This document shows positions 14,864 to 52,356 of a DNA stretch of 64,000 nucleotides, piece by piece. The position numbers and the translations under genes are program-made. The DNA is from Escherichia coli (lineage in GTDB: Bacteria > Pseudomonadota > Gammaproteobacteria > Enterobacterales > Enterobacteriaceae). Position 1 is the stretch's first letter. Each line of letters begins with the position of its first letter. Location of the stretch: assembly GCF_003018255.1 (NCBI RefSeq), contig NZ_CP027440.1. One strand, given 5' to 3'. The notes beneath the pieces were generated by a model that was not told the origin of the DNA, searched no databases, and saw only the letters and a list, made by a program, of their open reading frames with translations.

Positions 14864-15595
14864 TTACTGCGGGAACCACTGGTCATTGATTTTCTGATAT
14901 GTACCGTCAGCTTTAATTGCTGCCAGCGCGTTATTCAGTTTTTCCAGCAGAGCTTTGTTATCCGGACGTACAGCGATACCCAGGCCGGTGCCGAAGTATT
15001 GCGGATCGGTCACTTTTTCAGTCGCAACGCCCAGTTGCGGGTTGGTTTTCAGCCATTCATTAACCACCGCTGTGTCACCAAATACCCCATCAATACGGCC
15101 ATTTTTCAGATCGATAAAGGCATTCTGATAACTGTCATAGGAGACAGTTTTCACTTCCGGGTGCTGATCCTGAATATATTTCTGGTGCGTAGTACCGTTT
15201 TCCATCCCAATACGTTTGCCTTTCAGATCGGCAAACGTTTTGTAGGTATCTTTTTTGGCAATCACGACGGCTGAGTTTTCATAGTAGGGCGTGGTAAACG
15301 ATACCTGTTTGCTACGCTCTGGAGTGATATCCATACCGGAGATTACGGCGTCATATTTTCTGAATTTCAGTGACGGGATCAGGCTGTCGAACGCGTGATT
15401 AGTAAAAGTACATTCTGCCTGCATTTGTTTGCACAAGGCTTTTGCCAGGTCGATATCAAAGCCGACAATCTCATTATTAGCACCTATAGATTCAAAGGGT
15501 GGATAGGTGGCTGAAACGCCAAAATTGATTTTCTCTGCGGCAGAAGCACCGAAAGTAAAGGAAGCAAGTAATGCGGCAAGAACTAACTTTTTCAT
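14864..15595 (-). CDS. artJ: Arginine ABC transporter periplasmic binding protein ArtJ (243 aa)
   Basis: ORF 14864..15646 trimmed to MKKLVLAALLASFTFGASA signal peptide start. Confidence 0.9.
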   Translation of the reverse strand: MKKLVLAALLASFTFGASAAEKINFGVSATYPPFESIGANNEIVGFDIDLAKALCKQMQAECTFTNHAFDSLIPSLKFRKYDAVISGMDITPERSKQVSFTTPYYENSAVVIAKKDTYKTFADLKGKRIGMENGTTHQKYIQDQHPEVKTVSYDSYQNAFIDLKNGRIDGVFGDTAVVNEWLKTNPQLGVATEKVTDPQYFGTGLGIAVRPDNKALLEKLNNALAAIKADGTYQKINDQWFPQ

Positions 15596-42554: not shown

Positions 42555-44276
42555 TTACAAACCCTGCTTAAACTGGTAATAACGCCCCTGTCTGGCAAGC
42601 AGTTCTGCGTGAGTACCTTGCTCAATAATTTGCCCGTTGTCCATCACTATTATTTGTTGGAAACGAGAGAGTCCGCGAAGTCGATGGGTGACCATTAACA
42701 CCGTTTTCTCATGCATCATTTCTGCAAGCAATTCAAGGATCTGACTTTCGGTTGTGGCATCTAAGCCTTCTGTAGGTTCATCCAGCAATACCAGCGGCGC
42801 ATTATGTAACAGCGCACGGGCGATAGCCAGACGGCGTAGTTCACCACCGGAGAGCTGGCGTCCGCCTTCACCCAACCAACTGTTGAGACCTGCATCCTCG
42901 AGCAGCTTCTCCAGACCAACGCGACGTAAGATCTCCGCCAGAGCCTCATCACTACTGCCAGGCGAGGCGAGTAACAGATTATCACGCAGCGTGGCGCTAA
43001 ACAGATGCACTCGCTGAGGAACAACGCTGATGGTCTGTCGTAGAGTCGCTTCATTCAGGCTGGCTATGGGGCTACCGTTAAGCAAAATCTCGCCCTGTTG
43101 CGGGTCCCATGCGCGGGTCAGCAGTTGTAACAGTGTTGATTTGCCGCATCCGGTTCGCCCGAGAATCGCTATATGTTCCCCGGCGTTTACCTGAAGAGAA
43201 ATCCCTTTAAGTGCCTGTTGGGATTGCTCCGGATAATTGAATTGAACATCCCGTAACGTCAGCGAAACGCGATCGGCAACACGAGTTTGGGTATCAGGGA
43301 AGGTGACTTCCGGTTTTTGATCCGTTAAGTCAGTGATCCGTACGGCAGAGGCAATGACTTGCCCCAGATGCTGAAATGCACCCGTTACTGGTGCCAGTGC
43401 TTCAAACGCGGCTAACGCGCAGAAGACAAACAGGGCAATTAACGCGCCGGGTTGAGCATTGCCGCCAACGCCGCCAGACGCCATCCACAGCATCAGGATC
43501 ACCGCTAACGCGCCAATGAGCAGCATTATCGCTTGCGACAATGCGGTGAGTTCAGATTGACGACGTTGCGCTTCCAGCCACTGAATTTCTGTATTCTCTA
43601 ATTGCGTGCGATAACGATCGCTGGCACCAAAGATGGTCAGCTCAGCTTGCCCTTGCAGCCAGGCCGTCAGTTGTTGGCGATACTGCCCGCGAAGATGAGT
43701 CAGATTTTGCCCGGTGCTTTTTCCCGCACGATAAAACAGTGGTGGCATAAGGAAAAGCGTCAGTAACATAATGCCGCCCAGCGTAAAGGCGAGGGTGAAA
43801 TCAAGGAAACTTAACCCGATTGTCACCACCATAATCACCACAAAAGCGCCCACCAGCGGCGAGATAACGCGCAGGTAAAGATGATCGAGCGTATCAACAT
43901 CCGCCACCACGCGGTTGAGCAATTCGCCCTGACGATAGCGCGCCAGTCCGGCAGGGGAGAGGGGCAGCAATTTGCTGAAGGTATAAATGCGCAGATGCTG
44001 CAACACGCGGAAAGTCGCGTCGTGACTTACCAGACGTTCAAAATAGCGCCCGGCAGTACGGGTGATTGCTGCACCACGCACGCCCGCAGCGGGTAGCATA
44101 TAGTTGAAGCTGTACAGTCCGGCAACCCCCGCTACCGCTGAGGCCGAGAGGAACCAGCCGGAAAGTGTCAACAGACCGATACTGGCGAGCAGCGTGACAA
44201 TTGCCAGCACAATACCAAGACTTAACATCCATTTATGACGTTTATACAGTGCCAGATAGGGTAGCAAAGCGCGCAT
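42555..44276 (-). CDS. cydC: Cysteine/glutathione ABC exporter subunit CydC (573 aa)
   Basis: ORF 42555..44276; N-terminal TM domain, Walker A GRTGCGKST, signature LSGGELRR. Confidence 0.9.
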   Translation of the reverse strand: MRALLPYLALYKRHKWMLSLGIVLAIVTLLASIGLLTLSGWFLSASAVAGVAGLYSFNYMLPAAGVRGAAITRTAGRYFERLVSHDATFRVLQHLRIYTFSKLLPLSPAGLARYRQGELLNRVVADVDTLDHLYLRVISPLVGAFVVIMVVTIGLSFLDFTLAFTLGGIMLLTLFLMPPLFYRAGKSTGQNLTHLRGQYRQQLTAWLQGQAELTIFGASDRYRTQLENTEIQWLEAQRRQSELTALSQAIMLLIGALAVILMLWMASGGVGGNAQPGALIALFVFCALAAFEALAPVTGAFQHLGQVIASAVRITDLTDQKPEVTFPDTQTRVADRVSLTLRDVQFNYPEQSQQALKGISLQVNAGEHIAILGRTGCGKSTLLQLLTRAWDPQQGEILLNGSPIASLNEATLRQTISVVPQRVHLFSATLRDNLLLASPGSSDEALAEILRRVGLEKLLEDAGLNSWLGEGGRQLSGGELRRLAIARALLHNAPLVLLDEPTEGLDATTESQILELLAEMMHEKTVLMVTHRLRGLSRFQQIIVMDNGQIIEQGTHAELLARQGRYYQFKQGL

Positions 44277-46165: not shown

Positions 46166-47248
<1,083 letters not shown>

Positions 47249-47674: not shown

Positions 47675-48169
47675 ATGGTAGATAGCAAGAAGCGCCCTGG
47701 CAAAGATCTCGACCGTATCGATCGTAACATTCTTAATGAGTTGCAAAAGGATGGGCGTATTTCTAACGTCGAGCTTTCTAAACGTGTGGGACTTTCCCCA
47801 ACGCCGTGCCTTGAGCGTGTGCGTCGGCTGGAAAGACAAGGGTTTATTCAGGGCTATACGGCGCTGCTGAACCCCCATTATCTGGATGCATCACTTCTGG
47901 TATTCGTTGAGATTACTCTGAATCGTGGCGCACCGGATGTGTTTGAACAATTCAATACCGCTGTACAAAAACTTGAAGAAATTCAGGAGTGTCATTTAGT
48001 ATCCGGTGATTTCGACTACCTGTTGAAAACACGCGTGCCGGATATGTCAGCTTACCGTAAGTTGCTGGGGGAAACCCTGCTGCGTCTGCCTGGCGTCAAT
48101 GACACACGGACATACGTTGTTATGGAAGAAGTCAAGCAGAGTAATCGTCTGGTTATTAAGACGCGCTAA
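47675..48169 (+). CDS. lrp: Leucine-responsive regulatory protein Lrp (164 aa)
   Basis: ORF 47621..48169 trimmed to MVDSKKRPGKDLDRIDRNILNELQKDGRISNVELSKRVGLSPTPC (HTH). Confidence 0.9.
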   Translation: MVDSKKRPGKDLDRIDRNILNELQKDGRISNVELSKRVGLSPTPCLERVRRLERQGFIQGYTALLNPHYLDASLLVFVEITLNRGAPDVFEQFNTAVQKLEEIQECHLVSGDFDYLLKTRVPDMSAYRKLLGETLLRLPGVNDTRTYVVMEEVKQSNRLVIKTR

Positions 48170-48209
48170 CACGGAACAGGTGCAAAATCGGCGTATTTTG
48201 ATTACACTC

Positions 48210-48225
48210 CTGTTAATCCATACAG
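48210..48225 (+). promoter_or_regulatory. LexA (SOS) box CTGT-N8-ACAG upstream of ftsK (dinH promoter)
   Basis: Sequence CTGTTAATCCATACAG ~80 nt upstream of ftsK start; ftsK is recalled to have an SOS-inducible promoter. Confidence 0.55.
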
Positions 48226-48303
48226 CAACAGTACTGGGGTAACCTGGTACTGTTGTCCGTTTTAGCATCGGGCAGGAAAAGCCTGTAACCTGGAGAGCCT
48301 TTC

Positions 48304-51300
48304 TTGAGCCAGGAATACACTGAAGACAAAGAAGTCACATTGACAAAGTTAAGTAGCGGCCGCCGCCTTCTGGAGGCGTTGCTGATCCTTATTGTCCTGT
48401 TTGCCGTCTGGTTGATGGCTGCCTTACTAAGCTTTAACCCTTCGGACCCCAGCTGGTCGCAAACGGCCTGGCATGAACCTATCCATAATTTAGGTGGGAT
48501 GCCCGGTGCGTGGTTGGCGGATACGCTGTTCTTTATTTTTGGCGTGATGGCTTACACCATTCCCGTCATTATTGTCGGCGGTTGTTGGTTTGCCTGGCGT
48601 CATCAGTCCAGCGACGAATACATTGATTATTTTGCCGTTTCGCTACGCATCATTGGCGTTTTGGCGCTCATCCTTACCTCCTGTGGTCTGGCGGCAATCA
48701 ACGCTGACGATATCTGGTATTTTGCCTCCGGTGGCGTCATTGGCAGCTTACTAAGCACTACGCTACAACCACTGCTACACAGTAGCGGGGGAACTATTGC
48801 GCTGCTCTGCGTTTGGGCAGCGGGCCTGACGCTGTTCACCGGTTGGTCATGGGTGACCATTGCTGAAAAACTCGGCGGCTGGATTTTAAACATTCTCACC
48901 TTCGCCAGTAATCGTACCCGTCGCGATGATACGTGGGTCGATGAAGATGAGTATGAAGACGACGAAGAGTATGAAGATGAAAATCACGGCAAACAGCATG
49001 AATCACGCCGTGCCCGTATTCTTCGCGGCGCGCTAGCGCGTCGTAAACGGTTGGCGGAAAAATTCATTAATCCGATGGGGCGGCAAACAGACGCTGCGTT
49101 GTTCTCCGGTAAGCGGATGGATGATGACGAAGAGATTACCTACACTGCACGCGGTGTGGCTGCCGACCCTGACGACGTCCTCTTTTCGGGCAATCGTGCA
49201 ACGCAGCCAGAATATGACGAGTACGATCCATTATTAAACGGTGCGCCAATTACCGAACCTGTTGCTGTAGCAGCTGCTGCTACCACGGCGACGCAAAGCT
49301 GGGCTGCACCGGTTGAACCTGTGACTCAGACGCCACCTGTTGCCTCTGTTGATGTTCCACCTGCGCAACCTACAGTAGCCTGGCAGCCTGTACCGGGGCC
49401 GCAAACGGGAGAACCGGTTATTGCTCCTGCACCGGAAGGTTACCCACAGCAGCCACAATATGCGCAGCCTGCAGTGCAATATAATGAGCCGCTGCAACAA
49501 CCAGTACAGCCACAGCAGCCGTATTATGCACCTGCAGCTGAACAACCTGCGCAACAACCTTACTACGCTCCTGCGGCGGAACAACCTGTTCAGCAACCGT
49601 ATTACTCCCCTGCGCCAGAACAACCGGTGGCAGGTAACGCCTGGCAAGCCGAAGAGCTGCAATCCACTTTTGCTCCACAGTCTACATACCAGACTGAGCA
49701 AACTTATCAGCAGCCAGCCGCTCAGGAACCGTTGTACCAACAGCCGCAACCTGTTGAACAGCAGCCTGTTGTGGAGCCTGAACCCGTTGTAGAAGAGACA
49801 AAACCCGCGCGTCCGCCGCTTTACTACTTTGAAGAAGTGGAAGAGAAGCGAGCCCGTGAACGTGAACAACTTGCGGCCTGGTATCAACCGATTCCAGAAC
49901 CGGTTAAAGAACCAGAACCGATCAAATCTTCGCTAAAAGCACCTTCTGTTGCAGCAGTACCTCCAGTGGAAGCCGCTGCCGCCGTTTCTCCGCTGGCATC
50001 TGGCGTGAAAAAAGCGACACTGGCGACGGGGGCTGCCGCAACCGTTGCCGCGCCAGTCTTCAGTCTGGCAAATAGCGCTGGACCGCGTCCGCAGGTCAAA
50101 GAGGGGATTGGCCCCCAGTTGCCACGACCGAAACGCATCCGCGTGCCAACTCGTCGTGAACTGGCGTCTTACGGTATTAAGCTGCCCTCACAGCGTGCGG
50201 CAGAAGAAAAAGCCCGTGAAGCCCAGCGCAATCAGTATGATTCTGGCGATCAGTATAACGATGATGAAATTGATGCGATGCAGCAGGATGAACTGGCGCG
50301 TCAATTCGCCCAGACACAGCAGCAACGCTACGGCGAACAGTATCAACATGATGTGCCCGTGAACGCAGAAGATGCAGATGCTGCGGCAGAGGCTGAACTG
50401 GCTCGTCAGTTTGCTCAAACTCAACAACAACGTTATTCCGGCGAACAACCGGCTGGGGCGAATCCGTTCTCGCTGGATGATTTTGAATTTTCGCCAATGA
50501 AAGCGTTGCTGGATGATGGTCCACACGAACCGCTGTTTACGCCAATTGTTGAACCTGTACAGCAGCCGCAACAACCGATTGCACCGCAGCAACAGTATCA
50601 GCAGCCGCAGCAACCAGTTGCGCCGCAGCAGCAATATCAGCAGCCGCAACAGCCGGTTGCGCCGCAGCCGCAGTATCAGCAGCCACAACAGCCGGTTGCA
50701 CAGCAGCCGCAACAACCGGTTGCACCGCAGCAGCAATATCAGCAGCCACAACAGCCGGTTACACAGCAGCCGCAGTATCAGCAGCCGCAACAGCCAGTTG
50801 CGCCACAGCCGCAGGATACCCTGCTTCATCCGCTGTTGATGCGTAATGGCGACAGCCGTCCGTTGCATAAACCGACGACGCCACTGCCTTCTCTGGATTT
50901 GCTGACACCGCCGCCGAGCGAAGTGGAGCCGGTAGATACCTTTGCGCTTGAACAAATGGCGCGCCTGGTAGAAGCGCGTCTGGCTGATTTCCGTATTAAA
51001 GCCGATGTTGTCAATTACTCTCCGGGGCCAGTTATCACTCGCTTTGAACTTAACCTGGCACCGGGCGTAAAAGCGGCGCGCATTTCTAACTTGTCACGGG
51101 ACCTTGCCCGTTCACTTTCGACGGTGGCGGTGCGTGTCGTTGAAGTTATTCCTGGCAAACCCTATGTAGGTCTGGAGTTACCGAATAAAAAACGACAAAC
51201 CGTTTATCTGCGCGAAGTTTTGGATAACGCCAAATTCCGCGATAATCCGTCGCCATTAACCGTGGTGCTGGGTAAAGATATCGCCGGTGAGCCGGTGGTT

Positions 51301-52356
51301 GCCGATCTGGCGAAAATGCCGCACTTGTTGGTTGCGGGGACTACCGGTTCCGGTAAGTCTGTCGGTGTGAACGCGATGATCCTGAGCATGCTTTATAAAG
51401 CACAGCCAGAAGATGTGCGTTTCATCATGATCGACCCGAAAATGCTGGAGCTTTCGGTTTATGAAGGCATTCCGCATCTGTTAACGGAAGTCGTTACTGA
51501 TATGAAAGATGCCGCCAACGCGCTGCGCTGGTGTGTTAACGAGATGGAGCGTCGTTATAAACTGATGTCTGCGCTGGGTGTGCGTAATCTGGCGGGTTAT
51601 AACGAAAAAATTGCTGAAGCCGATCGCATGATGCGTCCGATTCCAGACCCGTACTGGAAGCCGGGTGATAGTATGGATGCGCAGCATCCGGTGCTGAAAA
51701 AAGAACCGTACATAGTGGTGTTGGTGGACGAATTTGCCGACCTGATGATGACGGTAGGTAAAAAAGTGGAAGAGCTGATAGCACGTCTGGCGCAAAAAGC
51801 CCGTGCCGCGGGTATCCACCTCGTACTGGCAACGCAGCGTCCATCGGTTGATGTTATTACTGGTCTGATTAAAGCGAATATTCCGACCCGTATCGCCTTT
51901 ACCGTATCCAGTAAGATTGACTCACGTACCATTCTTGATCAGGCTGGCGCGGAATCACTGCTGGGTATGGGGGATATGCTCTACTCTGGGCCGAACTCCA
52001 CGTTGCCGGTACGTGTCCATGGTGCTTTTGTTCGCGATCAGGAAGTTCATGCCGTGGTGCAGGACTGGAAAGCGCGTGGTCGCCCACAGTATGTTGATGG
52101 CATCACCTCCGACAGCGAAAGCGAAGGTGGTGCGGGTGGTTTCGATGGCGCTGAAGAACTGGATCCGTTGTTCGATCAGGCGGTGCAGTTTGTCACTGAA
52201 AAACGCAAAGCGTCAATTTCAGGCGTACAGCGTCAGTTCCGCATTGGTTATAACCGTGCAGCGCGTATTATCGAACAGATGGAAGCGCAAGGGATTGTCA
52301 GCGAACAGGGGCACAACGGTAATCGTGAAGTGCTGGCCCCACCGCCGTTTGACTAA
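48304..52356 (+). CDS. ftsK: DNA translocase FtsK (N-terminal membrane domain, long Pro/Gln-rich linker, C-terminal RecA-like motor + gamma domain), 1350 aa, TTG start
   Basis: ORF 48304..52356; [24 protein letters not shown]-terminus; Walker A GTTGSGKS in C-terminal motor. Confidence 0.9.
50560..50820 (+). repeat. In-frame 39-bp tandem repeats encoding ([13 protein letters not shown])n within the FtsK linker
   Basis: About 6-7 near-identical CAGCAGCCGCAACAGCCGGTTGCGCCGCAG... units; additional 36-bp repeats ([12 protein letters not shown]) at ~49510-49620. Confidence 0.85.

Follow-up and report, generated by a model that had tools for sequence, protein, structure and literature searches.

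The LexA operator upstream of ftsK in Escherichia coli: position on the dinH promoter, adjoining lrp terminator and conservation in the Enterobacterales

Introduction

The DNA translocase FtsK resolves dimeric chromosomes and removes DNA from the septum as it closes. In front of its gene, on the + strand at positions 48210-48225 of the DNA analysed here, lies the short palindrome CTGTTAATCCATACAG, and the question raised by this locus is whether the palindrome acts as an operator (SOS box) for LexA, or whether its likeness to one is fortuitous or a by-product of other demands on the same bases. The DNA in question (referred to as the window) is a 64,000-nt segment of an E. coli chromosome with the gene order trxB-lrp-ftsK-lolA. 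A dinH/ftsK LexA operator of E. coli K-12 was reportedly described by Lewis et al. in 1994 and by Dorazi & Dewar in 2000, and is annotated in EcoCyc/RegulonDB. Analysis of the window and of homologous loci in other species indicates that CTGTTAATCCATACAG is almost certainly a real and functional LexA operator belonging to the proximal, essential ftsK promoter (dinH). The feature is already known, and the work presented here is a confirmation and not a discovery; what is added is the placement of the operator, at base level, on the mapped transcription start, its conservation across an order, with a sharp taxonomic limit, and the location of an essential promoter in front of a terminator that works but leaks.

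The locus and the published dinH operator

The features of the locus are collected in Table 1. Published coordinates were converted as window position = NC_000913.3 position - 884,920, a mapping verified by alignment. The spacer between lrp and ftsK is 134 nt long and aligns with that of K-12 MG1655 at 100% identity. Identity of the spacer is 99% or more in 5425 of 5426 E. coli genomes, and the same level is reached over the 1.1 kb surrounding the box in 5424 of the 5426 matching records, which come from complete E. coli genomes. The ftsK SOS box printed among those of UV-induced genes in Table 4 of PMC3009722 is the 25-mer ACTCCTGTTAATCCATACAGCAACA, which is letter-for-letter the same as the window, and ftsK is also among the genes with a known SOS box in PMC6590174. 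The proximal ftsK promoter is essential and, according to PMC4080785 (which cites Dorazi & Dewar 2000 and Wang & Lutkenhaus 1998), is identical with the SOS promoter dinH.

The first-pass annotation of this DNA had proposed an SOS box in front of ftsK, and the identity with the published box, in a spacer fully matching that of K-12, bears this out; together with the reviews that equate the proximal promoter with dinH, it also upholds the reading of the region as an SOS-inducible dinH promoter. The distance of about 80 nt that had been given to the TTG start of the gene is correct (78 nt separate the end of the box from the TTG), and the downstream gene is indeed ftsK with a TTG start, as judged from the RefSeq start at 48304 and the score of 3093 bits against the FtsK model. 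Comparison with the known dinH/ftsK promoter, which had been suggested as a check, returned the same sequence at the same position as in K-12, with a regulatory region free of any difference.

Relative to K-12, the ftsK gene of this strain differs in its coding region only (I6T; 1350 vs 1329 aa): residue 6 is Thr here and Ile in K-12, and the protein of the best-matching strain, 14EC033, has ~1368 aa. These differences in length are presumably due to variation in the Pro/Gln-rich linker.

Table 1. Features of the lrp-ftsK region, in window coordinates
Feature	Position	Strand	Remarks
trxB	46166-47227 (listed ORF)	minus	Annotated gene shorter than the listed ORF
lrp	47675-48169		Flanks CTGTTAATCCATACAG on the upstream side
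Distal ftsK start (P1)	48009..48010	+	Inside the lrp reading frame; LexA box not overlapping
Inferred -35 hexamer, GTGCAA	48180..48185	+	-35 to -30; 17-nt spacer to the -10
Inferred -10 hexamer, TACACT	48203..48208	+	-12 to -7; invariant in 28/28 genera; ends 7 nt 5' of the transcription start
LexA operator (SOS box), 20-mer frame TCCTGTTAATCCATACAGCA	48208..48227		16-bp core CTGT-N8-ACAG at 48210-48225; based on matrix, published box and conservation
Proximal ftsK (dinH) transcription start	48214..48215	+	Inside the LexA box; two published 5'-end maps
Stem-loop, leaky intrinsic lrp terminator	48225..48256	+	14-bp stem with GUAA loop; -21.9 kcal/mol; CCGUUUUAG follows
Shine-Dalgarno GGAG and ftsK TTG	48292-48295 and 48304-48306	+	Inside conserved block CCTGGAGAGCCTTTCTTGAGCCAGGAA; RefSeq start
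ftsK coding sequence	48304..52356	+	1350 aa; the regulated gene; NCBIfam NF007615 DNA translocase FtsK, 3093 bits, full length

Match to the LexA consensus

The core of the box agrees exactly with CTGT-N8-ACAG, as the first-pass annotation had stated, and sits inside the 20-bp frame TACTG(TA)5CAGTA, from which its flanks deviate (TC...CA). The bare CTGT-N8-ACAG pattern is by itself weak evidence: the window holds two matches against 0.57 expected, and two or more were found in 12 of 100 shuffles. The other exact match, CTGTCATAGGAGACAG at 15132-15147, scores 6.3 bits only with the matrix described below and was dismissed as a chance palindrome.

Scoring with a LexA matrix, which had been named in advance as a check, was performed with a symmetrised matrix built from the 17 other published operators (Table 4, PMC3009722), the ftsK operator being left out (leave-one-out). 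The ftsK box obtained 16.35 bits, with a heterology index (HI) of ~10.3 on the 17-operator training set. This score falls inside the range of validated operators, ranking 14th of the 18 published ones (above uvrD, dinG, dinB and polB; below ruvA, lexA and sulA), so that the low score that would have spoken against the site was not observed. The box is the top-scoring 20-mer of the 64 kb window. A score of 16.35 bits has a probability of 1.06e-6 per position, equivalent to 0.068 expected occurrences per 64 kb window, ~5 per genome and 1.2e-4 per 134-nt spacer, and was attained in 11 of 200 windows simulated with a first-order Markov model. From sequence alone, the window-wide chance probability is thus ~0.05-0.07, which is suggestive; it is the placement of the box before ftsK that turns a suggestive score into a convincing one. 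The second-best matrix match, TTCTGTAGGTTCATCCAGCA at 42768-42787 (14.3 bits), lies within a 573-aa minus-strand ORF (cydC by K-12 position) and was treated as probably a chance occurrence, ~0.28 such matches being expected per window.

Position of the operator on the promoter

Two independent published 5'-end maps place the proximal start of ftsK transcription inside the box: the Cappable-seq start at U00096.2 932358 corresponds to window position 48215 (PMC4782308 supplement), and the SMRT-Cappable-seq start of ftsK (b0890) at NC_000913.3 933134 corresponds to 48214 (PMC6131387 supplement). The hexamers of the promoter were assigned from this start, TACACT being taken as the -10 by geometry and conservation, and GTGCAA as the -35 by its spacing to the mapped start. 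GTGCAA is part of a conserved block, caggTGCAaAa (48177-48187), in which TGCA is invariant and the flanks nearly so across 28 genera. With A48215 taken as +1, the LexA operator spans -7 to +13 and overlaps both the -10 hexamer and the start site, the last base of TACACT being the first base of the LexA 20-mer. A scan for consensus promoters between 47900 and 48400 called no sigma-70 promoter; the scanner missed dinH because its hexamers match only 7 of 12 consensus positions, and the empty scan is therefore uninformative with regard to this promoter.

A second, distal ftsK promoter (P1) has its start at U00096.2 932152 (PMC3415461) or 932153 (PMC4782308) and is dispensable (PMC4080785). Its start lies 295 nt 5' of the ftsK TTG, and P1 transcripts must traverse both the LexA box and the lrp terminator.

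The lrp terminator in the ftsK leader

A conserved, covarying stem-loop followed by CCGTTTTAG (48225-48265) directly adjoins the SOS box. The stem-loop stands out on folding (z = -4.3) and on covariation among 24 genera, in which 98.3% of cells are paired and 10 of 10 core pairs show compensatory changes; this level of pairing was matched by none of 500 shuffles, and slid controls were 33-59% paired. Published data locate 3' ends at its foot. A Term-seq end at 933176 (window 48256) is bicyclomycin-insensitive and not Rho-dependent (PMC7815308), and the SMRT-Cappable-seq termination site of lrp is at 933177, or window 48257 (PMC6131387). Among the reads that begin at the lrp promoter (n=367), 147 end at the hairpin, 49 end no more than 50 bp past it and 158 continue beyond it, by a median of 1297 nt (PMC6131387). 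A terminator scan did not call the hairpin, the T-run having 4 T vs a rule of 5 T. The structure shows the characteristics of an intrinsic terminator (a G+C-rich stem and Rho-independent 3' ends) with a short U-tract, CCGUUUUAG, and is passed by roughly half of the reads; it is a leaky Rho-independent terminator of lrp.

The stop codon and the terminator of lrp enclose the dinH promoter together with its operator, an arrangement kept across the Enterobacterales. Because the dinH start (48215) is upstream of the hairpin, dinH transcripts contain the entire stem-loop (+11 to +42).

A second, small hairpin, GGGCAGGAAAAGCCTG, is found in the ftsK leader at 48270-48285. It explains why the spacer measures 134 nt in Escherichia, Citrobacter and one Enterobacter MAG, compared with ~120 nt in most other Enterobacteriaceae, and it looks like a 14-nt insertion specific to this lineage. 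Further downstream, the block CCTGGAGAGCCTTTCTTGAGCCAGGAA, with the Shine-Dalgarno sequence and the TTG of ftsK, is kept across the Enterobacterales.

Conservation of the operator

The distribution of the site was surveyed in one scan of species-representative genomes with a degenerate pattern for the Lrp C-terminus, which gave 120 loci (121 with the window); 112 of the 121 sequences have ftsK downstream of lrp in the same orientation, and a site was counted at 12 bits or more, a score expected at ~1.2e-5 per position. In the Enterobacterales, 49 of 50 spacers (32 genera) carry such a site at the same position, 35-56 nt past the lrp stop (Moellerella excepted). No site of at least 12 bits was detected in the lrp-ftsK spacer of Vibrionales (0/22), Alteromonadales sensu lato (0/25) or Aeromonadales (0/4), nor between -400 and +30 of ftsK in any of the 62 non-Enterobacterales loci, which comprise Vibrionales, Alteromonadales, Aeromonadales, Pasteurellales and unclassified members, all of which keep the lrp-ftsK synteny. 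In eight Pasteurellales loci (L006, L013, L016, L035, L045, L069, L091 and L099), the ftsK start is estimated from tblastn to lie 13-22 nt before the lrp stop; lrp and ftsK thus overlap or abut, and there is no space for an intergenic promoter or operator. SOS control of ftsK appears, from these comparisons, to be an acquisition specific to the Enterobacterales despite the synteny kept elsewhere. Literature searches on a comparative LexA regulon that includes ftsK, and on ftsKp1/ftsKp2, yielded nothing relevant.

Within the order, families beyond the Enterobacteriaceae have boxes nearer to the consensus than that of E. coli, and those of Yersinia, Serratia, Hafnia, Edwardsiella, Proteus, Morganella, Photorhabdus and Xenorhabdus score 19-21 bits (e.g., TCCTGTTTATTCATACAGTT). 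A footprint anchored on the box, with one sequence for each of 28 genera, has TGCA (of the -35 block), TACACTCCTG, a central AT and ATACAG as invariant elements, while neighbouring columns of the spacer vary.

Two loci depart from this arrangement. Pantoea sp. Nvir (L067), a genome-reduced stink-bug symbiont, is the sole Enterobacterales locus without a remaining LexA-like site; its spacer has a decayed box (TTTCCTAAATTCGTACAAG / TACACTTTCCTAAATTCGTACAAG) and a degraded hairpin, with TACACT and the TTG start persisting, a pattern that fits a relaxation of SOS control in a reduced genome. In Moellerella wisconsensis (L119), the spacer is AT-rich and 919 nt long, and a degenerate box (CCTGTGTAATGCACTGCAG) and the hairpin stay beside lrp, far from ftsK, which has an ATG start.

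Published evidence for SOS regulation

Several published observations bear on whether the operator is used. The gene is among those induced by UV, with exactly the same box (PMC3009722), and its expression increases during SOS (PMC4080785, citing Wang & Lutkenhaus 1998). Ciprofloxacin causes a transient rise in ftsK mRNA with a maximum log2FC of 0.94 (PMC11002266), and induction by DNA damage is weak (~2-fold or less). According to a Reg-Seq study, the annotated LexA site in the ftsK promoter shows a repressor footprint when glucose medium is used, and this footprint disappears upon addition of H2O2 (PMC12133099). The first-pass annotation had named absence of LexA occupancy as an observation that would refute the site; the reported footprint points the other way.

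Alternative explanations

The simplest alternative is that the box is a chance match to a short palindrome, without regulatory role, with ftsK downstream by accident. Such a reading can draw on the counts given above for the core pattern (two matches vs 0.57 expected; 12 of 100 shuffles) and for the matrix score (11 of 200 simulated windows), as well as on the position of the ftsK site among the weaker operators. It would, however, leave unexplained a site held at a fixed position in 49 of 50 spacers and 32 genera, with better variants in distant families, when sites of at least 12 bits are expected at only ~1.2e-5 per position; a mapped transcription start inside the box and the published induction and footprint data also speak against it, and the probability of coincidence is considered vanishingly small. 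More demanding is the proposal that the bases are conserved as core promoter, initially transcribed region and foot of the terminator, so that the likeness to a LexA site is incidental and control by LexA negligible in vivo. The box does overlap the -10, the +1 and the first base of the hairpin, dinH is required in normal growth, and the induction of ftsK by DNA damage is small and transient. Yet the conservation is dyad-symmetric (CTGt...ATACAG) around a variable centre, which is the pattern of LexA and not of a promoter, and distant genera drift towards the LexA consensus (e.g., ...ATACAGTT, and TTTAT centres). In addition, the reported Reg-Seq footprint is that of a repressor and is lost with H2O2, and in the Pantoea symbiont the box has decayed while TACACT and the TTG persist. 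Conservation for promoter and terminator functions only is accordingly judged highly improbable, although the -10, the start site and the base of the hairpin, with which the box overlaps, could account for part of its conservation.

A LexA operator could also be combined with a different promoter geometry, consisting of a -35 TTGATT (48199-204), a -10 TACAGC (48221-26) and a start at ~48233 within the hairpin's left arm. In that case LexA would cover the spacer together with the -10; SOS transcripts, made without the 5' arm of the terminator, would so escape it. The 17-nt spacing and a -35 that matches at 4 of 6 positions in E. coli favor this arrangement, which would moreover explain how dinH transcripts avoid the terminator. 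Both cap-enrichment maps, however, put the start at 48214/48215, and neither lists one at 48230-48240 (K-12 933150-933159; U00096.2 932370-932379), while the -35 is variable across genera (TTGATT, TTTGGT, TTCGGT, TTAGGT, TCAGCT) and GTGCAA and TACACT are invariant. On the strength of the published starts and the lack of conservation of its -35, the TTGATT/TACAGC promoter was rejected; that it is the geometry in use is very unlikely, and the escape of SOS transcripts from the terminator by this route has equally little probability.

Proposed mechanism and comparison with other SOS operators

With the GTGCAA/TACACT promoter and the mapped start, a LexA dimer bound at 48208-48227 is predicted to extend from the end of the -10 hexamer across the start point to the thirteenth transcribed base, and LexA at -7 to +13 would, by this geometry, exclude RNA polymerase or compete with it. 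Upon DNA damage, RecA-stimulated self-cleavage of LexA would be expected to free the operator and raise the transcription of ftsK. To judge by its flanks (TC...CA instead of TA...TA) and by the G/C contained in its centre, the operator is a weak one. The left flank is TC and not TA because the overlapping -10 hexamer fixes those bases, and weakness of the operator fits an essential ftsK promoter that needs partial activity in undamaged cells. The small size of the induction is attributed to this weakness and, in addition, to transcription that starts independently of LexA at the lrp promoter and at P1 and continues past the leaky lrp terminator into ftsK.

The sulA (sfiA) operator, TACTGTACATCCATACAGTA, offers an instructive comparison, since its core (CTGTACATCCATACAG) shares 14 of 16 positions with CTGTTAATCCATACAG (2 differ) and both genes place cell-division functions under SOS. 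The sulA operator has the consensus flanks TA...TA and scores 20.4 bits, compared with 16.4 bits for that of ftsK; sulA is tightly repressed and strongly induced, whereas ftsK is leaky, essential and weakly induced. More comparable to ftsK are the weak, high-heterology operators of uvrD, dinG, dinB and polB (6.8-16.2 bits in the same leave-one-out test), which, like that of ftsK, belong to genes with substantial basal expression. Unlike operators of this type, the ftsK operator lies between the stop codon of the upstream gene and its terminator, and competes with read-through transcription from upstream promoters.

Implications

The nesting of dinH within the end of the lrp transcription unit invites a broader proposal, namely that the output of dinH is set by attenuation at the hairpin, that LexA acts as a roadblock to read-through transcription and that SOS control of ftsK is specific to the Enterobacterales. 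As a whole, this proposal is speculative and considered rather unlikely. If it were true, the output of ftsK from its essential promoter would be governed by promoter-proximal attenuation or read-through, a 42-nt leader RNA may be released from dinH transcripts, and LexA bound just before the terminator could make the 'LexA-independent' transcripts that begin at the lrp promoter or at P1 partly SOS-sensitive as well.

The SOS site of ftsK ties the DNA-damage response to chromosome segregation and closure of the septum. Because FtsK acts on chromosome dimers and on DNA at the closing septum, a modest SOS boost in its expression is sensible after recombinational repair.
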